From IMG/VR virus record IMGVR_UViG_3300045988_159436: a DNA stretch of 64,000 nt. One strand, written 5' to 3'. A program made the position numbers and the translations under genes. Source of the DNA: a virus. Each line of letters opens with the position of its first letter. Position 1 is the first letter of the stretch. The notes beneath the pieces are model-generated. The model searched no databases and was not told the DNA's origin. It saw only the letters and a program-made list of their open reading frames with translations. Below are positions 2,445 through 28,312 of the stretch, in pieces.

Positions 2445-3899
2445 ATGCAAGAATTTGAATTTGTTGATAATGGAATTTTTAAAAAAAATGGCAAAGACTA
2501 TCTTAATAAAGGGCAAATAGTAATTAATGATATAACATATTACTTTTACATCAGTTCTGATGTACCTTATTTCGCAGGGCTATATTTACCTAATAAAGAA
2601 AAATTTATAGTTATTGCTGTGACTGATGAAAATAAGGGCAGGGAAGCCACAGAAGAAGAACGTGTAATATTACAATGTAAATGTAGAAGGTGCATAAACT
2701 GTGGAGAAGTAATCACTAAAGAAGACTGGATTTGGGTAGACGGAGATACCTTATGCGCTAATTGTTATGAAAATTTATTGGGTGAAGAAATTGAAATATG
2801 TGATATTTGTGGGTGCGCCCATTTTTCTGATAATGATAGAATGATATACATTCAAGAAGAAGAGCAATTAATTTGTGATGAATGCGCTGAACGTCATTAC
2901 TTTCAATGTAGTAATTGCGGAAAATGGACTAAAGAAATACTACCAATGGCTGATGGAGATTACATATGCAACGAATGCTTCGAAACAGGGGACTATTATA
3001 TATGTGACGATTGCGGAAATGTTATAGCCCCTGATACTGACGGCATAATTATACGTAGTGACAGTGTATACTGTGAAGATTGCGCTTCTGAGCATGCAGA
3101 CCCCAATGAAGAATATATACACGAATATTGCTATTCTCCATGCATAATGTTTAATGAAGGGAATGAATTAAATAGTTGCCCGAAAAAGGGGGAAAGATAT
3201 TTCGGACTAGAAATTGAAACAGAATGTACTGGGGATATTACAGAAGTAATAGAAAATGAAAATTACTACTGGGCCACTGATGATAGCAGTATTCAATGTT
3301 TAAATGGGGGCTGTGCCGCTGAAATAGTAACGCAACCGACAACATTTAAAGCATGGCAGAATTACAGTGATGCATTTTTTGATGCTTTAGAAAATAACTG
3401 CGTTACTAATAATTCTTGCGGATTACATATTCATGTCAATAGAAATAGTGTATCAGATGAAACGATTGAAAAAGCAATATTATTTATTAGTAAACATTAT
3501 GAAAAAATAGCAATATTTGCAGATAGGTTGATGTGCAACATATGCAGTTATGCGGGGAATAATTTAGAACATTATAAAGATTTCTATCCTAATAGCAAAT
3601 CTGTTAAGGAAGAAATTAATATTATAAAAAAGGGGAAAGATAATGTACGGCATAAATATTTAGCTATAAATACCTTGCATAAGAATACATATGAATTCCG
3701 CATATTTAACAGCACTGTAGATAAAGATAGAATACTGGCATATATAGAATTTGTAGATGCATTGCTTGAATACTGTTCAGAGAATAACTTTTTACAAATT
3801 TGTAAGTCGGATTTTCTCGACTTAAACAAATATGCGGAAGGATGGGATAAATATAAAAATTTAACACACAGGTTCAGTGTTCTTAATCAAGAATTATAG
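2445..3899 (+). CDS. multi-Zn-ribbon protein with C-terminal amidoligase-like (Amidoligase_2/glutamine-synthetase-like) domain
   Basis: ~8 CxxC...CxxC pairs in N-half; YFGLEIETE, CGLHIHVN, YEFRIFNS motifs resemble GxExE / GxHxH / ExR of amidoligase family. Confidence 0.5.
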   Translation: MQEFEFVDNGIFKKNGKDYLNKGQIVINDITYYFYISSDVPYFAGLYLPNKEKFIVIAVTDENKGREATEEERVILQCKCRRCINCGEVITKEDWIWVDGDTLCANCYENLLGEEIEICDICGCAHFSDNDRMIYIQEEEQLICDECAERHYFQCSNCGKWTKEILPMADGDYICNECFETGDYYICDDCGNVIAPDTDGIIIRSDSVYCEDCASEHADPNEEYIHEYCYSPCIMFNEGNELNSCPKKGERYFGLEIETECTGDITEVIENENYYWATDDSSIQCLNGGCAAEIVTQPTTFKAWQNYSDAFFDALENNCVTNNSCGLHIHVNRNSVSDETIEKAILFISKHYEKIAIFADRLMCNICSYAGNNLEHYKDFYPNSKSVKEEINIIKKGKDNVRHKYLAINTLHKNTYEFRIFNSTVDKDRILAYIEFVDALLEYCSENNFLQICKSDFLDLNKYAEGWDKYKNLTHRFSVLNQEL

Positions 3900-5290: not shown

Positions 5291-5581
5291 TTACTCCTTT
5301 GTATATTTTTGGCAATAAGTATGACCATTCATAAAAACAAAATTACAACAATTACATTTATAATTATCTCTGTAAGTGCATTTAGCATCATTATAATATT
5401 TGCAATTAACCCACGGACAATACAATACTCTCTGCCATGAGTATTCGTCTCTAATGTGTACTTGTATTACTACATCTGCTAATTTTACTTTTATCATAAT
5501 CAGTCCTCGTTGAATAATAAAATCGTTGTGGTGAATACTCAGAAGGAGCTTGTGTAATATTGAACTGCCTACACTGCTCAC
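5291..5581 (-). CDS. hypothetical Cys-rich protein
   Basis: ORF track. Confidence 0.45.
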   Translation of the reverse strand: MSSVGSSILHKLLLSIHHNDFIIQRGLIMIKVKLADVVIQVHIRDEYSWQRVLYCPWVNCKYYNDAKCTYRDNYKCNCCNFVFMNGHTYCQKYTKE

Positions 5582-5610
5582 AATTAACTTTTATGCAATG
5601 AGGGCAATAG

Positions 5611-5892
5611 TTAAGATACTTCATTTAATTCACCTAACTCTTTAAGTGTTAGTGATTTTTCCCCTAATGCTTCTCTAACTGCATTATAGTTACGTAAAGC
5701 AATATCTATATCATAATAAAACTGTGAAATGATTTCTTCCTCAGTTCCAGAATATAAATATTGGTCAGAATCTCCACAAGTCTCACAGTACAAATCCTCA
5801 TAAGGTATTTCGTCTTCTGAGGTATAATAACCCCCTAAATGGCTTTCATATAAGTACATTATACTCCTCCTAGCATAAAAACTATCTTGCAA
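5611..5892 (-). CDS. hypothetical protein
   Basis: ORF track. Confidence 0.45.
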   Translation of the reverse strand: MQDSFYARRSIMYLYESHLGGYYTSEDEIPYEDLYCETCGDSDQYLYSGTEEEIISQFYYDIDIALRNYNAVREALGEKSLTLKELGELNEVS

Positions 5893-6059
5893 AGTAAAGC
5901 GGCGAAAATAATAAGATAAGCAATAAGAGAAGTCACTATAGCCGCTCTGCGAAAACCTGTAGTATAAAGCATCTCTAAGAAAAAATCGGAAAAAGCAATG
6001 CCTATTCCAAAATAAATAAACATAATTACAACATAAAATAAAACCATTATTTCCACCAC
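5859..6059 (-). CDS. hypothetical small membrane protein
   Basis: highly hydrophobic 66 aa. Confidence 0.3.
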   Translation of the reverse strand: MVEIMVLFYVVIMFIYFGIGIAFSDFFLEMLYTTGFRRAAIVTSLIAYLIIFAALLCKIVFMLGGV

Positions 6060-6370
6060 GTTTCTAGTTTAAAATTTGTTTCACCAGTTTCTTTTTCAAA
6101 AAGTTTTTTTACAAGTTTTCCTAAATCTTTTTCTGTGCTTGCTTTGAGTGCTTCTGAATTGTGCAAAAATACTTTCATTACAGTTCCTGAGGACAAAACA
6201 AAGTCATACATTTGAGAAACTGAAATGGTATGTTCACATTTAGAACAAATTAGAGTAAGGGTGTTAATATACTCTGAGACATAATCACAAGTAGGACATC
6301 CCCCATAGCTTTCTTCATCTGATTCGATATTGAGTAAATAACCATCTTTTAATTGCAATAAGTATTCCAT
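6047..6370 (-). CDS. hypothetical protein
   Basis: ORF track. Confidence 0.45.
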   Translation of the reverse strand: MEYLLQLKDGYLLNIESDEESYGGCPTCDYVSEYINTLTLICSKCEHTISVSQMYDFVLSSGTVMKVFLHNSEALKASTEKDLGKLVKKLFEKETGETNFKLETWWK

Positions 6371-11054: not shown

Positions 11055-11140
11055 GGAGGATTAGCCTAATGGTAAGGCATCAGTCTTGAAAACTGACGTG
11101 CGATTAAAGTCGTTTGTGGGTTCGAGTCCCATGTCCTCCT
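11055..11140 (+). tRNA. tRNA-Ser(TGA), type II
   Basis: cloverleaf by eye, long variable arm, CCA encoded. Confidence 0.7.
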
Positions 11141-11146
11141 CCACAT

Positions 11147-11222
11147 GAGTCAGTGTATTCTTGGGGTAAGGAAACGGTCTGCAAAACCGTTAAAATTCAC
11201 GGTTCAACTCCGTGCTGACTCT
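11147..11222 (+). tRNA. tRNA-Cys(GCA)-like (atypical D-arm)
   Basis: acceptor GAGTCAG/CTGACTC, anticodon loop ctGCAaa. Confidence 0.5.
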
Positions 11223-11239
11223 CCAATAAAAAATAATGC

Positions 11240-11268
11240 TTGACAAATACACAAAAGTGTGATATAAT
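11240..11268 (+). promoter_or_regulatory. sigma70-type promoter inside tRNA array
   Basis: TTGACA-17-TGtGATATAAT. Confidence 0.65.
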
Positions 11269-11279
11269 ATATATATAGT

Positions 11280-11350
11280 GCGGTAATAGTTTAAGGGTAA
11301 AACTTTAGCCTTCCAAGCTAATGTTACGAGTTCGATTCTCGTTTACCGCT
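11280..11350 (+). tRNA. tRNA-Gly(TCC)
   Basis: cloverleaf by eye. Confidence 0.7.
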
Positions 11351-11355
11351 CCAAT

Positions 11356-11426
11356 GGGCTGTTAGTTTAACGGTAGAACAGTGGTCTCCAAAACCATTAA
11401 TGGGGGTTCGATTCCTTCACGGCTCG
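11356..11426 (+). tRNA. tRNA-Trp(CCA)
   Basis: cloverleaf by eye. Confidence 0.7.
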
Positions 11427-11430
11427 CCAT

Positions 11431-11502
11431 ACTTAGGTAGTTCAATGGTAGAATCCCGCTCTGTTAAAGCGGTAGTTGTTGGTTCGAGTCCAACCCTAAG
11501 TG
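11431..11502 (+). tRNA. tRNA-Asn(GTT)
   Basis: cloverleaf by eye. Confidence 0.75.
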
Positions 11503-11507
11503 CCAAT

Positions 11508-11578
11508 GGAGGGTTAAGTCAACGGTAGACTAGGCAACTTATAATTGCTTAATATTGGTTCGATTCCAGTACCCTCAA
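11508..11578 (+). tRNA. tRNA-Ile(TAT) (AUA-reading) - acceptor 1:72 mismatch
   Basis: anticodon loop ctTATaa; good D and T arms. Confidence 0.5.
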
Positions 11579-11583
11579 CCAAT

Positions 11584-11657
11584 CTTTGTGTGGCGCAGTT
11601 TGGTAGCGCATTCGCTTTGGGAGCGAAGGGTCGCAGGTTCAAATCCTGCCACAAAGA
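11584..11657 (+). tRNA. tRNA-Pro(TGG)
   Basis: cloverleaf by eye. Confidence 0.75.
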
Positions 11658-11801
11658 CCAAAGACTATAAAAGGATAGGGCACTCCCTAGCGCAAAGTGG
11701 AGGATGCGGATTTCCGCTGTCGTAATGGCATCGTCTAAAAAAATCCTTTTAATTTGCCAGAGTAAAGCTAGCAAATGCTCTGGCATTAGATTGCGGGTGG
11801 G

Positions 11802-11875
11802 AGGCAAGGTGTTCTCGCAAGCCTCATAAGCTTGTTTAAGGTGGGTTCGATTCCCATACCCGCTCCCAAATAAAA
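11802..11875 (+). tRNA. tRNA-Met/Ile2(CAT), 5' end uncertain
   Basis: anticodon arm caagc-ctCATaa-gcttg, T arm gtggg-ttcgatt-cccat. Confidence 0.45.
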
Positions 11876-11937
11876 GTTCTAGCTTGGGCATAAGCTCTGG
11901 GGCTACCGTAGATAGGGACATTTCCCTATCACTTAAT

Positions 11938-12010
11938 GTGAATATAGCTTAGTTGGTAAAGCACTTGACTTTTAATCAAGATAGCGGAGGTTCAATTCCT
12001 CCTATTCACA
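11938..12010 (+). tRNA. tRNA-Lys(TTT)
   Basis: cloverleaf by eye. Confidence 0.75.
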
Positions 12011-12073: not shown

Positions 12074-12667
12074 ATGCTTTGCGAAAACTGTAATAAAGAG
12101 CATAATGGAAGTTATGGTTCTGGAAGATTTTGTTCTAAAGAATGTGCTAAGTCTTTTTCTACCAAAAATAAAAGAAAACTAATAAACGAAAAGGTTAGTA
12201 ACAGTTTAAAAGGACGCATTGTTTCGGATTTAACTAGGAGAAAAATATCAGATGCTGGAAAAGGGAGAAGACATACAGAAGAGACTAAGAAGAAAATACA
12301 AAAAAGCAAATTAGAATTTTATAAAGAAGAAGAAAACATTCTTAAAATATCTATAGCGCATCTTGTCCAAAAAGGCAAGAATATAAATTCTATCTTAGAT
12401 GTTAGTCCTAGAACAGTGACTAAAATTTTAAAAAGGTTAAAAATTGGTTGCTCGTTGTGTGGTTGGGATAAAGCCACTTGCGACATTCACCATATTAAAG
12501 GCAGAAAAATAGTTAATCCTAATGCTCATAGTAATTTAACTTACATTTGTCCAAACTGTCATAGATTAGTACATGCGGGTTTAGTGGATTCAAAAGAGTT
12601 AGTGACACTTGAACAACATATAGGAGATAGGTGGAAAGAATACTATTTTAGAAAAGAGACACCGTAG
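12074..12667 (+). CDS. HNH homing endonuclease with N-terminal Zn finger and NUMOD3-like repeats
   Basis: CDIHHIKGR...N...CPNCHRLVH. Confidence 0.75.
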   Translation: MLCENCNKEHNGSYGSGRFCSKECAKSFSTKNKRKLINEKVSNSLKGRIVSDLTRRKISDAGKGRRHTEETKKKIQKSKLEFYKEEENILKISIAHLVQKGKNINSILDVSPRTVTKILKRLKIGCSLCGWDKATCDIHHIKGRKIVNPNAHSNLTYICPNCHRLVHAGLVDSKELVTLEQHIGDRWKEYYFRKETP

Positions 12668-12728: not shown

Positions 12729-13339
12729 TAAAGATAGGAGCGTTCATGTGGAACATTAAGAAAATTGTAAGTAAAGGTGATTATTTATATGCTTTAGTTC
12801 CTGAACATCCAAAAGCAACTAAGAATGGTTACGTTCTTTTACATAGGATTGTTATGGAAAATCATCTTGGTCGGTTACTTAATGCGAATGAAGTTGTACA
12901 TCATAAAAATTTGAATAAGAAAGATAACAACATCAAAAATTTAGAAATTTTGTCTATAAGAGAGCATGCTAAAAAACATGGATTAAAACTAAAGAAACAC
13001 ATGGTTTTGTTAAAATGTCCTTGTTGCAAGAAAGTGTTCTCGCTAGCTCGAAATAAATCTTTTTTAGTAAAGAAGACAAAATATAATTGTAACTGTTGTA
13101 GTTGTTCTTGTAGAGGTAAATTAACAAAAATGATACAGCTTCAAGGAGTAACACTTGAACTGGAAGATGCTATATCGGAGAATCTCTTAACGGAATATTT
13201 GCTAAACAAAGCCGAAGACAACTCCGAGGAAACCTTCTTACAAGGGGTTCTGTAGAGACTATACGCATCTTACCTGAAATGGTAAAGAAATAGTCCAGAC
13301 TACAACACATATGTGGCTATAGAAATATAGAGTAGTAAG
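12729..13339 (+). mobile_element. tRNA intron (group I-like) carrying HNH endonuclease
   Basis: follows U, ends in G; 3' exon restores anticodon loop cttCTaa, stem, T arm and acceptor ATGGGAA. Confidence 0.5.
12746..13255 (+). CDS. HNH endonuclease (HNH_3) with C-terminal Cys cluster
   Basis: VVHHKNLNKKDNNIKNLEIL. Confidence 0.75.
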   Translation: MWNIKKIVSKGDYLYALVPEHPKATKNGYVLLHRIVMENHLGRLLNANEVVHHKNLNKKDNNIKNLEILSIREHAKKHGLKLKKHMVLLKCPCCKKVFSLARNKSFLVKKTKYNCNCCSCSCRGKLTKMIQLQGVTLELEDAISENLLTEYLLNKAEDNSEETFLQGVL

Positions 13340-13377: not shown

Positions 13378-13750
13378 CCAAATAGATTATAATAGCTTGG
13401 GGTTAAAATAAAATAGTGAGTCTAGATAACCATTAGTGACTTAGGGCGCATTAAGTTGGGTCAGCAACAGAAAAATCTGACACATTGGTCTGCTAGGGAC
13501 TTTAAAAAACTCACGCCTTTTGTTCATAGAGACAGAAGTTAGCCATTGATAGTATATATTTAACTGTATAAGTATATGCCGAGGCTTTATCAGTTCGCAC
13601 TGAGCTAATTTACAGCTAGGTATAGAGCCGAAGAAGAAAGTGCCAACCAAGCCATTTTATATACTAGGACTAAAGGGTAGAACGGTCAGCTACCGCCACA
13701 GAGAAGCTCTGGTAGGAGATGCTGGGTTGACAGCCAGCTTAGTTCTTATT

Positions 13751-13823
13751 TGCCAGATAGTGTAATGGTAACACAGCAGACCTTGACTCTGTTAAGTGTA
13801 GGTTCGAGTCCTACTCTGGCATC
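13751..13823 (+). tRNA. tRNA-Gln(TTG) (C33 in loop)
   Basis: cloverleaf by eye. Confidence 0.6.
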
Positions 13824-13828
13824 CATAT

Positions 13829-13900
13829 TGAAGCATAATACAAGGGTTAGTATGCTGTGCTGATAACGCAGAAATGATGGTTCAACTCCATCTGCTTCAA
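13829..13900 (+). tRNA. tRNA-Ile(GAT)
   Basis: cloverleaf by eye. Confidence 0.7.
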
Positions 13901-13904
13901 CCAT

Positions 13905-13978
13905 GTCCTATTACCCCAATCGGCAGAGGGAACGGACTTAAAATCCGTACAGTCTCAGTTCGAATCTGAGATAGGACA
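13905..13978 (+). tRNA. tRNA-Leu(TAA) with short variable arm (atypical type I)
   Basis: anticodon loop ctTAAaa. Confidence 0.5.
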
Positions 13979-13985
13979 CCAAAAT

Positions 13986-14058
13986 GGCATATTAGTCTAA
14001 TGGCTAGGACACAACACTTTCAATGTTGGGATGGCGAGTTCAATTCTCCCATATGTCA
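13986..14058 (+). tRNA. tRNA-Glu(TTC)
   Basis: cloverleaf by eye. Confidence 0.7.
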
Positions 14059-14064
14059 CCATAC

Positions 14065-14134
14065 ATGCCTTTAGCTTAGTTGGTTAAAGCGGCTGGTTGA
14101 AGCCCAGCAGAGTCCGTTCGATTCGGAGAGGCAT
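14065..14134 (+). tRNA. tRNA-Phe(GAA)
   Basis: cloverleaf by eye. Confidence 0.65.
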
Positions 14135-14139
14135 ACCAT

Positions 14140-14212
14140 GCTAGTGTAGCTCAATAGGTAGAGCAACGGCTTTGTAAGCCGTGGGTTGCGGGTTCAATTC
14201 CTGCCACTAGCT
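14140..14212 (+). tRNA. tRNA-Thr(TGT)
   Basis: cloverleaf by eye. Confidence 0.75.
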
Positions 14213-14354: not shown

Positions 14355-15302
14355 GTGATTACTAAGGTGAAAAAGCGGGATGGAAGAATTGTAGATTATG
14401 ATTCTTCTAAAATTGTTAATGCGATTCTAAAAGCTTTTAAAAGTTTAGGAATGTTAGAAGGAAAAGAAGTAAGGTTAGCAAACAAGATAGAATCTAAAAT
14501 TAAAGAGACAGCAGAAAGTATTCCAGAAGTTGAATTTATTCAAGATATGATTGAAAAAGAGTTAATGGCATCAAATTTTAAAAATGTAGCGAAAGAGTTT
14601 ATTTTATATAGGGAAAAAAGAAATAGAGAGCGGGAAAGAGATTCTGCGTTAAGAAAAGAAATATTAAGTAAAATAGAATGTACAAATGTGATGAATCAAA
14701 ATGCAAATGTAGATGAAGAAAGTTTTGGTGGCAGAAAATTTGAAAGTGCCGCAGTAATACATAAAGATATTGCGTTAAATGATTTAATGTCAAGTGATGT
14801 AGCTAAAGCACATAAAGAGGCAAGAATTTATATTCACGATTTAGATAGTTATAGTGTTGGGATGAGCAACTGCTTGTTTTCGGATTTAGTACCGCTATTG
14901 ACAAATGGTTTTATTACAAGAAATGGTGATGTAAGAGGGGCAGGAAGCTTTAGCACTGCTTGCCAATTAGTAGCTGTAATATTTCAGGCTCAAAGCCAAT
15001 GTCAGTTTGGTGGAATAGCTTCTGCACATATAGATAGAGATTTAGCACCATTTGTAAAAAAGAGTTTTGTAAAACATTTCAAAAATGGTATGAAATATGT
15101 AGAGCAAAAAGAAATAGATAAAGAATTGGAATATTTTTTAGGCTTTTTAAAAAACAATGAAGAGAATATACATATAGATAATGATGTCTTTAAGAAATAT
15201 GAAAAGGCATATGAATACGCAAATGCTATGTTAGAGCTTGAAGGAAAACAGAGTACAGAAGCAATGTATCATAATTTAAATACCTTAGAGAGTCGCCCAG
15301 GT
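14355..15302 (+). CDS. nrdD: anaerobic ribonucleoside-triphosphate reductase NrdD exon 1 (ATP-cone + N-terminal catalytic region); 3' junction approximate (15293 or 15302)
   Basis: ATP cone VKKRDGRIVDYD..; class III RNR-like segments; frame ends at a stop inside the intron. Confidence 0.7.
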
Positions 15303-16451
15303 AGGAGAACTGCCTGTTAGAGATGGAAACACTTTAATGTAATCGGGCAAAATCGGTAAATTCTAAAAAATTGGAGAATATATGAAGAAATTAGATGTAG
15401 AAATAGAAAATGAAATTATTAAATATTATATTGAATATTTTTATAGCTGTCGTAAGATAAGTAAAGATTTAGGAATAAGTGGAGCTACTGTTTTAAATGT
15501 TTTAAAAAGAAATGGGATTCCTACGAGAACAAAGGGAGGAATTTATGAATTGCCTACTTCTTTATTGGTGCAAAAATATAGAGAAGGGGTTTCTATAATT
15601 CAGCTTTCTAAAGAATATCAAGTATGTGTTCAAACTATTGCAAATTATTTGGCAAAAGCGGAAATTAATTTAAATAACATATATTACAATAAGAAATTGG
15701 ACAGAAACTATTTTGATAAAATAGACACATACGATAAGGCTTATTATTTAGGCTTTTTGATTTCTGATGGTAGCGTAGGCACTTCTACAAATAAAATTGA
15801 TTTAACGTTAAAAAAATCAGATAGTTATATTTTAGACGTTTTAAGTTCTAAAATTAATAATACTAATCCTATATATTTTTCTAAAAGAGGAGAGGCTTCT
15901 TTAACTTTTAAGTCTAAAGAAATAAAAAATGCTTTAGCAAAATATGGAGTAATTCCTAATAAAACGTTTAAAACTTATTTACCTGAACTTGAAATGTCTT
16001 TAATGCCACATTTAATTCGAGGTTTAATAGATGGAGATGGTTGGGTATCATTTAAATCTCACGCTATTGGTTTTTGTGGCTCTGTTGAGCTAGTAGGACA
16101 AGTTAGAGATTTTTTAGTAAAAATTCTAGGCGTTTTTCCTGTAAAAATTATTGAACATTCAAGTATTTGTCAAGTTAATTGGGCATCAAAAAATGATATT
16201 ATAAAAATAGGAAATTATATTTATAAAGATAAACAAGATTGTTTTCTACATAGGAAATTCAATAATTTTATGAAAATACCGAGATAACTTAATATGTAAT
16301 AGTATTAAGTATTGTAGAGCGTAGCGATTGAACCTCTAAGAGAATATAATATCGCCAAGAGTGTCCGATACCCTAACAAGTAAAGTTGAGGGTAAAAATG
16401 TACGCCGAACTTATGGGAAACCATAAGAACTATGAGATAAAAAGCTTGTAG
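15303..16451 (+). mobile_element. group I-like intron 1 in nrdD with LAGLIDADG HEG
   Basis: starts after U, ends in G; shares gggcaaaatcggt and a ~75-nt 3' core with intron 3. Confidence 0.6.
15382..16287 (+). CDS. LAGLIDADG homing endonuclease (two-motif)
   Basis: YLGFLISDGSV and LIRGLIDGDGWV. Confidence 0.85.
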   Translation: MKKLDVEIENEIIKYYIEYFYSCRKISKDLGISGATVLNVLKRNGIPTRTKGGIYELPTSLLVQKYREGVSIIQLSKEYQVCVQTIANYLAKAEINLNNIYYNKKLDRNYFDKIDTYDKAYYLGFLISDGSVGTSTNKIDLTLKKSDSYILDVLSSKINNTNPIYFSKRGEASLTFKSKEIKNALAKYGVIPNKTFKTYLPELEMSLMPHLIRGLIDGDGWVSFKSHAIGFCGSVELVGQVRDFLVKILGVFPVKIIEHSSICQVNWASKNDIIKIGNYIYKDKQDCFLHRKFNNFMKIPR

Positions 16452-16766
16452 GATAACAAATTGAGTCAATTACCTTTTACTTCAATTAACTATGGTTTAG
16501 ATATAACGCCAGAAGGAAGATTAGTAACAAAATGGTTATTAAATGCTTCTATTGAGGGAATAGGCAAAAATCATTTAACTCCGATTTTTCCAATAAGTAT
16601 TTTTCAATACAAAAAAGGGGTTAATGATAGAGAGGGAACTCCTAATTATGATTTAAAAAAATTAGCCATAAAGAGTTTAAGTAAAAGGATATATCCAAAC
16701 ATTGTAAATTGTGATTGGAGTAAAAATCCTGCTTCAAACATTGATGAAGAAATGGCTACAATGGGT
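16452..16766 (+). CDS. nrdD: NrdD exon 2
   Basis: ...SQLPFTSINYGLD...EEMATMG| ends at G of conserved MG-CR junction. Confidence 0.65.
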
Positions 16767-17012
16767 AAGTGGAACTTAGCCCATTTAAAACCCTTTGAAC
16801 GCCGTCAGGCGGTGTGACCAGTAGGTTGCTAACGGTTAGGACTCTTTGAGTTGAGACCGTGCTAAGGTTCATATATTGTGATGAACAAAGTGTATCGACT
16901 AGCCGTGATGAGTGTAGCGGCGTAGGGACGGAGATAGACACCGTATCCGAAGCGGAGGGCTGTTTTTAAACAGATAATATAGTCAGTACCACTAGCGATA
17001 GTGGAGAATACG
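16767..17012 (+). mobile_element. small ORF-less group I-like intron 2 in nrdD (246 nt, GC-richer, structured)
   Basis: splits conserved ..MG|CRTLIG..; follows U, ends G; stop codons in reading frame. Confidence 0.55.
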
Positions 17013-17897
17013 TGTAGAACCCTGATAGGTAAAGATAGACATGGAATGGGGTATAAGAAAGACGGTAGAGGTAATGCTTGCCCTGTAACTATTAATTTAC
17101 CTAGAATTGGAATAAAACATGGCATTTGCTTAGGCAAACCATTAGATTTAGAAGGATTTTGGAAAGAGCTTGATGAAGTATTAGATTTAACAGAAAAGAG
17201 CTTAATAGAGAGATTCTTTTATATGTGTAAGCAGAGTGTAAAAGCCGCTCCGTTTATGTATAACAATAATATTGTTGCTGATGCAAAATTGGCAAGAGAA
17301 AAAGGCATTTATGAAACATTAAAGCATTTTACATTAGGATTTGGATATATTGGTATTGCTGAAATGTGTCAAGCACTGTTTGGTGCAGACCATTATGAGT
17401 CTAAAGAGAGTTTGGATTTTGCTTTGAAAGTTGTTGAGCATATTTATCAAAGAACGGTTGAAGCAAGTGAAAAGCATAATTTGAATTTCTCTTGTTATGC
17501 TACTCCTGCTGAAACATTGGCATATAAATATGCTTTGGCTTTAAAGAAAGAGTTTGGAGTAATACCTAATGTTACAGATAGGGAATATATAACTAATTCA
17601 CATCATGTTCCAGTTTGGCAACAAGCATCTATTTTTGAAAAATTAGATATTGAAGCTAAATTCTGTAAATACCCCACGGCAGGCTGTATTACTTATATTG
17701 AGTTTGAAGCAGATGCAATGAAAAATGAACAAGCGGTAGAGGATATTATGGATTACGCAATGTCTATAGATGTTCCCTATTTAGCTTATAATTTTCCTAT
17801 TGATGTTTGCCATGATTGCGGATTACAGAGTGATATCCCAAGTGTTTGCCCGAATTGCGGAAGCAATAATATTTTACGTTTAAGAAGGGTTACAGGT
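17013..17897 (+). CDS. nrdD: NrdD exon 3 (..CRTLIGKDRHGMG..CPVTINLPRIG.. C-terminal Zn ribbon CHDCG..CPNCG, ..RVTG)
   Basis: class III RNR motifs; glycyl radical motif RVTG|Y split by intron 3. Confidence 0.7.
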
Positions 17898-18199
17898 TAT
17901 TGAATAGCCGTATTTACAAGAAATTGTAAATATAATTATTGGGCAAAATCGGTGAACCCTAAAATTTTTACTTGACAATACTTAAGAAATGTGATAAGTT
18001 TAAAAAAATTAAGGGAATACCGAGGTAAGTTATTAGATAGCGAAAGGCTGATAGCTACTGTAGAGCGTAGCAGGTGAATAAATATAATCCTGCCAAGAGT
18101 GTCCGATACCCTAACAAGTAAAGTTGAGGGTAAAAATGTACGCCGAACTTATGGGAAACCGTAAGAAGTTAGGATAAAAAGCCTAGCGATAACATAATT
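17898..18199 (+). mobile_element. ORF-less group I-like intron 3 in nrdD (302 nt), homologous to intron 1 core
   Basis: 16357-16428 nearly identical to 18094-18166; boundaries follow U / end G. Confidence 0.55.
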
Positions 18200-18331
18200 G
18201 TATTTAACCGTTGACTACCGAAATTTTAATAAAGGCAAACAAAAAGAGTGTGAAGATAGGGTCAAGCATACTAAATACACAAAATTAAGATATGATGCTT
18301 ATGATGATTTAAAAACTAAACAAACAAAATA
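18200..18331 (+). CDS. nrdD: NrdD exon 4 (YLTVDYRNFNKGKQKECEDRVKHT...)
   Basis: continues glycyl-radical region like T4 NrdD (RVCGYLG..FNAGKQEEVKRRVKH). Confidence 0.6.
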
Positions 18332-18350
18332 ATTATTAGGTGGTATTAAA

Positions 18351-25161: not shown

Positions 25162-25834
25162 ATGTCTGAAAACCAAACACCAAAATTCCCAACAGCGAAT
25201 GATATTAATACAATTATTCGTGAGGGTGGTACTGAATTAGCCGCAGGTAATGCGATTCGCTTAATTAACGAATTAAAACCTGTGTATTCTAGAGAATTAG
25301 ACTATCAAGCTGAACCAGTTATGAGATTTTATCAGTTTGCGGCTGTAAAAACTGAGTTAATGACTCAACCTGGCAATACTATAAAAATGTTGACTTACAA
25401 AAACTTAGAGTTGCCGCCAGAATTGCTTGAAGGTGAGAGAATTAAATCTCAAACTTTAAGCTCTACAATGAAAGAAATTGTTGTTACAGAGCATGGTACT
25501 GCAACAGCAATTACTTCATTATCTTTACAGTTCTCTTTTGTTGACCAGATGGCTAACAGCTTAAAATTGCTGGGCAGAAATATTGGTCACGCAATCGAAT
25601 GTGAATTGAGAGATACTGCTTGCACAGGTGATGTAGGCACTTCTAAAATTTTTGGACGTAAAAAAGATGCGGCTAAAATTTCTGCAAGAGGTGATATTGC
25701 CACAGGTGCAAATGAATTATCAGTAGCAACTATTAAAGATGCTGTTGAAATTCTGTCAACTAACAATGCACCGAAAATTGGTGGCAATTATTACATTTGC
25801 TTCGTACATCCTTATTGTGGGGACTTGGCGGCGT
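25162..25834 (+). CDS. major capsid protein exon 1 (HK97-fold-like)
   Basis: ..TIKDAVEILSTNNAPK..GNYYICFVHPY.. then stop immediately inside intron. Confidence 0.65.
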
Positions 25835-26726
25835 AAGTCGTCTTGAAAAATAACGTGAAAACATGGAAGCCTAAGTCAGAGTTGTTCACTGATAAGGTAA
25901 TCATGTGAGAAGGCAGGATACATTAATGAATAGCTTACAGCAAGAAATTTTAATAGGAAAATTGTTGGGAGATGGAAGCATCTCTAAAGTATCAGAAAAA
26001 ACAGCAAGATTTAATATAGGTCAGTCTATAAAACAAGAAGATTATGTCAATCACCTTTATGGCATATTTAAAGATATGTGTGGTACTCCACCGAGAAAAC
26101 AGAAAAGTGGAGAATATACTACAGTTTATTTTAACTCATTGTCTTCTTTTGAATTAATGGACATTTATAAGCTATTTGTAAATGACGGTATAAAAGGAGT
26201 TCCTCAAAATATTGAAGAATTACTGACAGTAAGAGGGTTAGCTTATTGGTTTATGGATGATGGGACAAGTTCCTATGTTTCCATAACAAAAAGATTAAAA
26301 ACCAGAAATGCTTTTGCAATGTTTTGTACTGATGCGTTTAACGATAAAGATATAGATTTATTGAGAAATGCTTTGTTCAAAAACTTCGGAATCAAAAGTA
26401 GTGTGGCTAGTCCAAAATCAAGAAAAGGAAAAAGAATTTATATTGGAACAGATGAGACCCAGAAACTCTTTGATTTAATTGAGCCTTTTATAATCGACAG
26501 TATGTCATATAAAATAAAAAGACCTTACATACTGTAAAATATCTGTGCCCTTGCAACGACTATGGACGTTACTTCCTTGAAAAGAGGAAGATGAGATAGT
26601 CTGGACTTATAGGAAACTATAAGAGGGGATTCCGTTAGGGAGTTGTACGCCCTACATTGAAGTGTTTCCCCCGCCAAGAAATTGGTCATAAAAGTAACAG
26701 ATAGCATCAATCAAGAACATTGCGGG
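25835..26726 (+). mobile_element. group I-like intron A in capsid gene carrying LAGLIDADG HEG
   Basis: 5' region cgtgaaaacatggaa..atcatgtgagaagg repeated in intron B; 3' core gagatagtctg..aagagggg..cccgccaagaaattggtca. Confidence 0.5.
25905..26537 (+). CDS. LAGLIDADG homing endonuclease
   Basis: LLGDGSISK and YWFMDDGTSS. Confidence 0.8.
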   Translation: MRRQDTLMNSLQQEILIGKLLGDGSISKVSEKTARFNIGQSIKQEDYVNHLYGIFKDMCGTPPRKQKSGEYTTVYFNSLSSFELMDIYKLFVNDGIKGVPQNIEELLTVRGLAYWFMDDGTSSYVSITKRLKTRNAFAMFCTDAFNDKDIDLLRNALFKNFGIKSSVASPKSRKGKRIYIGTDETQKLFDLIEPFIIDSMSYKIKRPYIL

Positions 26727-26756
26727 ATGACCCAGCTTGGATGAAGACAGCGGCGT
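26727..26756 (+). CDS. putative capsid mini-exon (~10 codons, YDPAWMKTAA); boundaries uncertain
   Basis: in-frame join satisfying U/G splice rules; gcggcgt 5' splice context duplicated at 25828-25834 and 26750-26756. Confidence 0.3.
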
Positions 26757-26892
26757 AAGCCGATAGCATTAGTCCACTTGTGCAGAAATGCACTCGATTA
26801 AACTTCGTGAAAACATGGAACTCCTAAACCGAAAGGCATGGCAATCATGTGAGAAGGTTATGTGAAAATCTATTTTAAAAGGAGTAACGAAA

Positions 26893-27477
26893 GTGAAACA
26901 AGTAATTAAAGATTATCCAAATTATTTGATAACTACATCTGGAAAAGTTCTTTCCGCTTATAAAGGGGGAGAAGAGCTAGTTCCTAGAGTTGGAACTAGA
27001 GGATACGCTTATGTAAATCTTTATAACGAAAAAGGCAGAAAAACAAAAAAGATACATAGACTTGTAGCTGAAACGTTTATACCTAACCCAGAAAATAAGC
27101 CTATGGTAAATCATAAAGACGGAAACAAGTTAAATAATCATGTAGAGAATTTAGAATGGGTAACACCCTCTGAAAATGCTCAACATGCTGTTGATAATGG
27201 GTTGCTGTCTTTTGATACAGAAGCACATAAAAGAGCTTCTCGTGAAAATGGCAAAATGTTTGGTGGAAGGTGTGGCAGAAAGATTTTCGCCATGAATGTT
27301 ATAAATGGATATATAAAAACTTTTAAGAGCGTGTCAGAAGCTGTGAAATATTTAAATGTGACAGAAAACTCATTAAGAACAGCTCTTAAAAAAAGTAAGT
27401 GTATAAATGGTTATCATGTTTGGTATACAGATACCCTTGCAACGACTATGGACGAAGAGCCCAAAATAGGGTTATGA
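26893..27477 (+). CDS. HNH homing endonuclease (NUMOD4 + HNH_3 + AP2-like)
   Basis: PNYLITTSGKV.., HHKDGNKLNNHVENLEWVTPSEN. Confidence 0.8.
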   Translation: MKQVIKDYPNYLITTSGKVLSAYKGGEELVPRVGTRGYAYVNLYNEKGRKTKKIHRLVAETFIPNPENKPMVNHKDGNKLNNHVENLEWVTPSENAQHAVDNGLLSFDTEAHKRASRENGKMFGGRCGRKIFAMNVINGYIKTFKSVSEAVKYLNVTENSLRTALKKSKCINGYHVWYTDTLATTMDEEPKIGL

Positions 27478-27727
27478 GATAGTCTAACCTTGTGGGAAAC
27501 CGCAAGAGGGTTACTCAGGTGTAAAGACACCTTAAAGAAGTAGTAGCCCCGCCAAGAAATTGGTCAGTACCCTTAACGTAGTGGGGGAAAGTAATAGGAA
27601 CTGTAATGCAAGTAACTACGGCGCACCAGAACAGTTATTTAGCGGTAGATTTTGCCGCTGTGCTTGAATAAAAACAAGTACAAAGAACTCTGCTAAACGG
27701 TTGGCTTTAAAAAGCCTATGAATTATC

Positions 27728-27756
27728 TTGACAATCAGGAAACAATATGGTATAAT
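27728..27756 (+). promoter_or_regulatory. sigma70-type promoter inside capsid intron
   Basis: TTGACA-17-TGgTATAAT. Confidence 0.6.
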
Positions 27757-27989
27757 GTTAAGCTAATAAGTGAACCCCAATGGGGCAATACCGTACTAAA
27801 GAAGTCATTTATATGAGATATAAATTGACTGAAAAAGTCTAACGACTATACACAGAGTACCTTGAATGTTTAACATGGGTAAAGAGATAGTCTGACCACA
27901 TAGGTAACTATGTGAGGGGTAGTCAAGTGTAAAGACACTTATAGAAGCACGCCCCCGCTTACTTTTGTAAGTAAAATGGGTATTTACCG

Positions 27990-28312
27990 CCCATAGTAAC
28001 AATTTGGAAATCGGTAGAATAGATGATGTTCGTTTTATTGAGACAACTATGATGCCTAATGGTGCCGCACCTGCTGGTGATAATATCGCTGGTTATAAAG
28101 CTGATTTAAAGGGTGCAGGCAAAAATAGCATTGATGTATACCAAGCTGTTTTATTTGGTGAAGATTACTACGCTATGGCAGTAGCTTTACCGCCTGAAAT
28201 CAGAACAGATACTCCACAAGATTTCCAACGTGAGTTAAAACTCGGTTGGTATGGAATTTGGGGCACTAAATCCTTGAATCCTACTCATGGCGTTATCATT
28301 GAAACTGCTTAA
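27990..28312 (+). CDS. major capsid protein terminal exon (..HSNNLEIGRIDDVRFIETTMMP..)
   Basis: GxIGxxxxVRFIET motif typical of HK97-like capsid C-termini; no ATG/RBS of its own. Confidence 0.65.

Follow-up and report, generated by a model that had tools for sequence, protein, structure and literature searches.

Three predicted group I introns divide the class III ribonucleotide reductase gene of an uncultured phage

The window analysed here is the whole 64,000-nucleotide (nt) stretch of IMG/VR virus record IMGVR_UViG_3300045988_159436, from an uncultured, GC-poor phage of about 95 kb whose nearest cultured relative, judged by TerL, is the Bacillus phage BCD7. Its nrdD is very probably one gene with three group I introns, which would be removed to give a NrdD protein of 755 amino acids. 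A search of a large protein collection returned an uninterrupted 755-residue NrdD (P0001) that is 97% identical, and the contig that encodes it, L001, comes from a close relative of the phage with unchanged gene order. Aligned by blastn, L001 and the window differ by exactly three gaps within nrdD, in a gene that is 93-96% identical at the DNA level; because the inserts are exactly these gaps relative to an uninterrupted gene, chance is excluded. A layout of four exons and three introns had been proposed in a first-pass annotation made from the sequence alone, and the comparison with the intronless allele supports it. The junctions, read base by base against L001, give the following features.

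14355..15302, + strand, nrdD exon 1: 316 codons, with the ATP-cone and the N-terminal part of NRDD; ends ...NTLESRPG; aligns with L001 3360-5320
15303..16463, + strand, intron 1: 1161 nt, predicted group I intron of IA type with a P7.1 hairpin; placed by the L001 gap and empty sites
15382..16287, + strand, predicted homing endonuclease gene of intron 1: 301 amino acids, two N-terminal helix-turn-helix (HTH) modules and a double-LAGLIDADG core
16464..16766, + strand, nrdD exon 2: 101 codons, SQLPFTSINYG...EEMATMG; aligns with L001 5324-5624
16767..17012, + strand, intron 2: 246 nt, predicted group I intron with a T4-like IA2 layout; exact gap against L001 and L017
17013..17897, + strand, nrdD exon 3: 295 codons, CRTLIG...RLRRVTG; placed by alignment to the intronless allele
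17898..18200, + strand, intron 3: 303 nt, no open reading frame (ORF), same family as intron 1; empty sites in L001 and L208
18201..18332, + strand, nrdD exon 4: 43 codons plus stop (18330-18332), YLTVDYRNFNKGKQKECEDRVKHT...

Exon boundaries and identity of the gene

Excision of all three introns restores an uninterrupted frame that matches the intronless alleles. The corrected spliced NrdD aligns with P0001 without gaps and is identical at 737 of 755 positions (97.6%), and six further contigs (L185, L202, L213, L016, L017 and L208) carry empty sites equal to the ligated junctions. All three introns are inserted between codons, with every junction in phase 0. At the intron 1 site, L001 and four further empty sites read SRPG/SQLPF (GGT/AGTCAA), and every homologue has the same residues there. 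The empty site comes in two forms: one is near-identical to the ligated junction (CGCCCAGGTAGCCAA in L185, L202 and L213, CGCCCTGGTAGTCAA in L016), and the other has several silent changes (CGTCCTGGGTCTCAA; L001 5310-5330, L017 about 3300-3330). The second form may represent endonuclease-resistant target variants or co-conversion tracts.

Most of the junctions given at first pass stand. The frame does break after GGT at 15302, and again between MG and CR (16766/17013) across an ORF-less insert of 246 nt, which at 46.7% GC is richer than the exons (31.6%). Exon 2 had been started at 16452, which is 12 nt early: the intronless allele and the empty sites give 16464, and positions 16452-16463 (GATAACAAATTG) are the conserved 3' tail of the family to which introns 1 and 3 belong, so that the earlier junction adds four spurious residues (DNKL). 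The break at 17897, within RVTG/Y and followed by a TGA one codon on, is correct, whereas exon 4 starts at 18201 rather than 18200, G18200 being the last intron base. With these corrections every insert still follows a U and ends in G, as had been stated. Intron 3 opens with UAU, the same three bases with which exon 4 begins; owing to this repeat, P1 and P10 of intron 3 use the same guide bases, and the DNA alignment has a 4-nt ambiguity at the junction. Inteins were considered as the nature of the inserts and rejected, as in-frame stops lie 6, 17 and 1 codons past the three 5' splice sites.

By its domains and motifs, the interrupted gene is assigned to NrdD, the class III (anaerobic) ribonucleotide reductase (RNR). 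The frame lies on the + strand with a GTG start at 14355 and AAGGAG 7 nt upstream. Pfam assigns the 759-residue splice of the first-pass annotation to NRDD (PF13597) with 505 bits, aligned across positions 2-562 of the 562 in the profile, and to an N-terminal ATP-cone with 76 bits. The protein contains MGC418R with the finger-loop cysteine, RVTG712Y, which has the glycyl-radical form RVxGY, and the Zn-ribbon cysteines CHDCG...CPNCG; the Cys of MGCR and the Gly of RVTGY align to T4 C290 and G580. Exon 3 thus begins with the codon of the catalytic Cys and ends with that of the radical Gly, with the Zn-ribbon cysteines between them, and the tail after the third break reads YLTVDYRNFNKGKQKECEDRVKH.

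Predicted ribozyme structure of the introns

All three introns have a U.G wobble in P1 at the 5' splice site, a terminal (omega) G fixed by the empty sites (G16463, G17012 and G18200), and a P3/P7 pseudoknot core with P4-P6, P8 and P9, in which homologues carry compensatory changes. The first-pass wording, 'group I-like', was too guarded, as the inserts are by these features ordinary IA-type group I introns.

Introns 1 and 3 belong to one family. In intron 1, P1 (15298-15302/15312-15316, CAGGU/GCCUG, with U15302.G15312) and P2 (15317-15322/15332-15337) precede P3 (15343-15348/16363-16368) and P4 (15353-15358/16277-16282); P5 is only 3 bp, its halves a ~900-nt ORF apart. The 3' half is formed by P7 (16319-16323/16401-16405), P7.1 (16324-16328/16351-16355), P8 (16371-16377/16385-16392), P9 (16410-16416/16421-16427) and P9.1 (16430-16436/16445-16451), and closes with the tail GAUAACAAAUUG (16452-16463). 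Intron 3 has P1 at 17895-17900/17904-17909 (GGUUAU/AUAGCC, with U17897.G17907 and an in-frame stop in the loop), P2 at 17911-17919/17924-17932 with a GAAA loop, P3 at 17939-17944/18101-18106, P4 at 17949-17954/18018-18023, P5 at 17957-17962/18009-18015 and P6a at 18029-18036/18049-18055, followed by P7 (18065-18069/18139-18143), P7.1 (18070-18074/18089-18093), P8 (18109-18115/18123-18130), P9 (18148-18154/18159-18165) and P9.1 (18168-18173/18182-18187). Over 156 nt of the 3' half (16310-16463 versus 18056-18200) the two introns are 84% identical, with a 69-nt identical run (16354-16422 = 18092-18160). This bears out the near-identical 3' core reported at first pass, as does the shared 5' element GGGCAAAATCGGT at 15345-15357 and 17941-17953; the common element GGGCAAAAUCGGU comprises the P3 5' strand, J3/4 and the P4 5' strand.

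The same core was found in 112 GenBank phage records and more than 120 IMG/VR contigs, and in GenBank it typically comes after an HNH or LAGLIDADG gene lodged in a gene for a helicase, polymerase, terminase or tail protein. From these homologues we aligned 108 3' halves and scored covariation on 104 distinct sequences. For P7, P7.1, P8, P9 and P9.1, paired cells make up 93.3%; shuffled alignments reach 70.5% and slid partners 26-44%. The covariation score is 0.596 versus 0.177, and 24 of 28 pairs show changes on both sides. P7 has a single variable pair, read as G-C in 92 of the distinct sequences and as A-U in the other 12, with no mismatch, under a search pattern that admitted all four combinations. 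P3 pairs the strand that immediately precedes AAAA-UCGGUG with the one that immediately follows CAAGAGU; its mean pairing is 5.45 versus 4.0 when permuted, above all 200 permutations, and compensatory variants such as UCCUCC/GGAGGA and CAAACC/GGUUUG occur. The outer pair of P4 flips from U-A to A-U in perfect register, and P5, P6 and P6a covary as well. The resulting helix order, P3-[P4-P6]-P7-P7.1-P3'-P8-P7'-P9, with the U.G in P1 and the terminal G, corresponds to group I architecture, and the hairpin between P7 and P3' points to IA type. Both introns have a single P7.1, with an optional P7.1a, and are therefore not IA2; their subgroup would be either IA1-like or IA3-like.

Intron 2 is of a different kind, a T4-like IA2 intron by its layout, as it alone of the three has both P7.1 and P7.2. 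We assigned its helices by inspection: P1 at 16761-16766/16779-16784 (AUGGGU/GCCCAU), P3 at 16791-16796/16954-16959 (CCCUUU/GGAGGG), P4 at 16832-16836/16856-16860, P5 at 16840-16844/16848-16852, P6 at 16867-16872/16881-16886, P7 at 16897-16901/16980-16984 (GACUA/UAGUC), P7.1 at 16902-16905/16918-16921, P7.2 at 16925-16931/16941-16948, P8 at 16960-16964/16969-16973 and P9 at 16989-16994/16999-17004. The IA2 introns of T4 td, T4 nrdD and Twort have the same layout, a comparison checked against the T4 and JSE sequences. By blastn, the J6/7-P7-P7.1 segment is matched in T4-like, Aeromonas, Salmonella and Lactococcus phages, and a pattern scan of IMG/VR for this intron type returned 95 loci, of which at least eight also have the intron at the MG/CR site. 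Pair counts over 12 introns of the family support P3, P4, P5, P6, P7.1, P9 and two extra hairpins (16800-16811 and 16816-16827), and P1 is kept in 12 of 12. The extra hairpins, which covary and lie between the P3 5' strand and P4, are present in most same-site relatives and missing in L144, JSE and T4.

In the mechanism that these structures suggest, the primary nrdD transcript would carry all three introns, each folding as a ribozyme and excising itself. Free guanosine held in P7 would attack the phosphate after the U of the P1 U.G pair, the freed 5' exon would then attack after the terminal G, and the ligated message would encode the 755-residue NrdD.

Homing endonucleases, mobility and alternative readings

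The gene within intron 1 occupies the P5 loop and extends with its final codons into the P4 3' strand. The first-pass annotation had called it a two-motif LAGLIDADG gene, which profile search and fold both back. The motifs are YYLGFLISDGSV and LIRGLIDGDGWV, at residues about 121-132 and about 211-222. In Pfam the ORF matches HTH_50, and LAGLIDADG_3 (PF14528) reaches 21.9 bits, below the curated cut-off of 22.5; many of its 356 homologues, which are about 310 residues long, carry PF14528, including many at about 50% identity. A single-sequence search of the PDB gave marginal matches only (E=0.02), and a profile of 26 homologues matches the LAGLIDADG enzyme of PDB entry 2dch with E=3e-7. An AlphaFold (AF2) model has a pLDDT (predicted local distance difference test) of 89.3, and its top Foldseek matches in the PDB are LAGLIDADG endonucleases or endonuclease-bearing inteins, including I-LtrWI, PI-PfuI, I-PanMI and I-AniI. 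The model thus points to a LAGLIDADG protein with the pseudo-dimeric alpha-beta-beta-alpha-beta-beta-alpha fold. The protein would be expected to cut empty nrdD sites; candidate targets are those of L185, L202 and L213 and the empty-site DNA GAGAGTCGCCCAGGTAGCCAATTACCTTTTAC. With its HTH and double-LAGLIDADG gene in the P5 loop, intron 1 may in principle be mobile at present. The window's introns 2 and 3 are ORF-less forms. In relatives, intron 3 carries a 307-residue HTH-LAGLIDADG gene in the P5 loop (L017 1130-2043, - strand; L202 8186-9099), whose product is a paralogue of the intron 1 protein (34% identity, E=1e-44), and intron 2 carries a 201-residue GIY-YIG gene in the P6 loop (L185 6878-7443). 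The ribozyme cores of introns 1 and 3, at 84-89% identity, are far closer than their endonucleases.

Among the relative contigs compared, whose exons are 93-99% identical to those of the window, nrdD carries the following elements.

L001: none
L017: intron 3 with ORF only
L208: intron 2 with ORF only
L185: intron 2 with ORF, and intron 3
L202: introns 2 and 3, with an ORF in both
L016 and L177: introns 2 and 3 without ORFs, and a 301-residue in-frame intein at SN/CLF
L166: the 3' end of intron 1 at the locus edge, intron 2 with ORF, and intron 3
Window: intron 1 with ORF; introns 2 and 3 without ORFs

The variable occurrence of each intron and each intron ORF is the pattern that would be expected from recurrent homing and endonuclease loss. 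In reconstructed T4 numbering, the intein lies at N78/C79, intron 1 at G190/Q191, intron 2 at G289/C290 and intron 3 at G580/Y581. Intron 2 directly precedes the codon of the thiyl-radical Cys (T4 C290) and intron 3 directly follows that of the radical Gly (T4 G580); together with the intein site, the insertion points thus adjoin three catalytic residues of NrdD, C79, C290 and G580, which are established as such in T4. Insertion at highly conserved codons would be expected if the introns spread by endonucleases that need invariant targets. The intein itself (5415-6320, - strand, in L016; also in L177) has a LAGLIDADG motif and an Intein_splicing match at E=8e-7; its site, GMSN/CLF, before the Cys equivalent to T4 C79, corresponds to 14864/14868 of the window, which has no such intein.

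Several results weigh against the reading of nrdD as one spliced gene. At the Rfam gathering threshold the whole window gave tRNAs and a skipping-rope RNA only, with no group I intron, and an E-value search of Rfam over 15200-18300 gave nothing relevant. Introns 1 and 2 had no match to RF00028 even at E<=10 (intron 2 also when searched alone), and intron 3 alone reached 30.9 bits against a cut-off of 50 (E=2.6e-6), in a full-length model match from 17888. This alignment skipped bases in the P7-P3' interval that holds the P7.1 hairpin; this suggests a limit of the RF00028 model for this intron type. P10 pairings are short in introns 1 and 2, and a look-up of the exact spliced protein sequence gave no match in the protein collection. 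A tblastn search with T4 NrdG found no nrdG, the activase gene, in the 64-kb window, so that an active NrdD would require a gene from another part of the phage genome or from the host. Splicing is itself inferred from structure and from the intronless allele rather than observed. The sub-threshold or absent Rfam scores, together with the loss of endonuclease genes from introns 2 and 3, would also suit decayed remnants that no longer splice, in a phage whose nrdD is a pseudogene. We consider this very unlikely, since the core helices are all intact and fit the family consensus, introns 2 and 3 recur as identical copies on several independent contigs, and the exons are free of frameshifts and stops; protein identity to the intronless allele (97.6%) also exceeds DNA identity (about 93-96%), as expected under purifying selection.

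Alternatively, each of the four pieces would be translated on its own and the products would combine into a working enzyme. There are documented cases of split RNR genes that function unspliced, for instance nrdA of Aeromonas phage Aeh1, interrupted by an endonuclease gene, and ORF finders give TTG or GTG starts at 16461, 17001 and 18198. These starts, however, have no Shine-Dalgarno sequence and lie inside the conserved intron 3' tails; the breaks fall within the MG/CR and RVTG/Y motifs, beside the catalytic Cys and the radical Gly, the last fragment would be just 43 residues long, and the conserved ribozyme structure of the inserts would go unexplained, which makes separate translation extremely improbable. 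It is also unlikely, if less so, that the introns splice with a protein helper, either a host factor or, as maturase, the LAGLIDADG protein of intron 1, rather than autonomously. The presence of I-AniI and the bI3 maturase, both LAGLIDADG proteins, among the structural matches would fit such help, as would the 3-bp P5 of intron 1 with its halves split by the 900-nt ORF, but relatives retain intron 2 or intron 3 without intron 1 and its protein, and a protein that combines HTH with LAGLIDADG has the design of an enzyme acting on DNA. To our knowledge, self-splicing in vitro has been found for every phage group I intron tested (T4, Twort, SPO1), which also counts against a helper.

The cores of introns 1 and 3 are interchangeable, so a hybrid fold is possible: the identical run spans the P3 3' strand, P8, the P7 3' strand and P9, the P7 5' strands are identical, and the P3 and P4 5' strands are compatible. 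If, in the pre-mRNA, the 5' half of intron 1 folded with the 3' half of intron 3, the hybrid ribozyme would ligate exon 1 to exon 4, in frame because the junctions are phase 0, and this, if true, would amount to alternative splicing by exon skipping in a phage; we think it quite unlikely. At the DNA level, the repeat could recombine and delete exons 2-3. More likely than the hybrid ribozyme is that intron 1 arose from an intron 3-type element that moved within the gene, after which its endonuclease diverged (34% identity) and the cores were kept alike by gene conversion.

Comparison with known systems and the surrounding locus

The nrdD introns of Escherichia phage JSE and of the Lactococcus 949/AM1 group, both IA2, occupy the same MG/CR site as intron 2, between the Gly and Cys codons, and share with it the layout of P1, J6/7-P7-P7.1 and P7.2. 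The AM1 intron (about 284 nt) also has the two extra hairpins between P3 and P4 and is ORF-less; the JSE intron, in contrast, has an endonuclease gene and lacks these hairpins. Outside the core, intron 2 has little identity to either: with AM1 it is about 74% across 84 nt, and with JSE near-identity extends over no more than about 35 nt. The T4 nrdD (sunY) intron with I-TevII is in the same host gene, belongs to group IA and is mobile by a homing endonuclease, and its P7.1 loop, UGAUGARUGUAG, resembles that of intron 2. T4 differs from the window in having a single intron and a GIY-YIG gene. A shared insertion site was considered and rejected: the T4 site is at codon Y180, 11 codons upstream of intron 1, and is none of the three sites.

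Phage RNR genes with multiple introns have been described before, and the MG/CR site is already known from phages. Brochothrix phage A9 nrdE has three introns and an intein, Staphylococcus phage Twort nrdE has two introns, the nrdD of Jug phage is in four fragments with support from RNA reads, and nrdD is the RNR gene most often split in phages. Like the window, A9, Twort and Jug carry several group I introns in one essential RNR gene, sometimes with inteins, beside conserved residues; all three are other phages, and A9 and Twort, unlike Jug, have other RNR classes. The window differs from them in having, in one gene, two introns out of three that are close paralogues of each other. The family of introns 1 and 3 also occurs in Staphylococcus phage ROSA, Clostridioides phage phiCDKH02, Bacillus phage vB_BsuS_PJN02 (in a RecD-like helicase gene) and Leptolyngbya phage Lbo-JY46 (in a DNA polymerase gene). 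Common to this ROSA-type family and to introns 1 and 3 are GUAGAGCGUAG, a P7.1 hairpin with a UGAAU...AAAUAUAAU loop, CAAGAGU and AAAAUGUACGCCGAAC in the core, the GAUAAAAAGC loop in P9.1 and the tail GAUAACAnnUG. The ROSA-type introns differ in their host genes and endonuclease types (HNH, LAGLIDADG or none), and most are unannotated in their records. A DNA search of GenBank phages with the whole region matched intron cores only and found no close relative of the phage.

What is mildly new here is the occurrence of two close paralogous introns in a single gene, perhaps the extra hairpins of the intron 2 lineage, and the complete range of polymorphic states among relatives; the locus does not alter how group I introns are currently understood. 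It shows the life cycle of homing endonucleases in compact natural form: close relatives have one intein and three intron sites in one gene, where elements are present or absent, with or without an endonuclease gene. Split nrdD is common and is annotated in pieces: gene callers fragment it, and the curated Rfam threshold misses all three introns, so that intron-aware annotation of uncultured phages needs intronless alleles or subgroup-specific models. The 90% cluster of P0001 contains many fragments of 285-300 residues, the named ones labelled reductase, such as NCBI DAF66459.1 (Caudoviricetes metagenome-assembled genome, 87 contigs), and 290 contigs carry the intron 1 endonuclease under the name 'hypothetical protein'.

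The major capsid gene (window 25162-28312) is likewise in four exons, about 25162-25815, 26705-26745, about 27605-27646 and 28007-28309, when compared with the uninterrupted 345-residue gene of L001. Its three inserts give weak RF00028 matches (27-33 bits), and none resembles the nrdD introns; two of them hold endonuclease genes, LAGLIDADG_2 at 25905-26537 and HNH_3 plus NUMOD at 26893-27477. Downstream of nrdD lie a gene for a deoxynucleoside monophosphate (dNMP) kinase-like protein and then a DNA ligase gene. Just upstream are 14 tRNA genes in two arrays (11055-12010 and 13751-14212), with one tRNA gene, at 11938-12010, extra relative to L001, and the skipping-rope RNA (13666-13746; RF02924, 49.7 bits). 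The tRNA region also contains two free-standing HNH endonuclease genes, at 12074-12667 (HNH plus NUMOD3) and 12746-13255 (HNH_3), both missing from L001.

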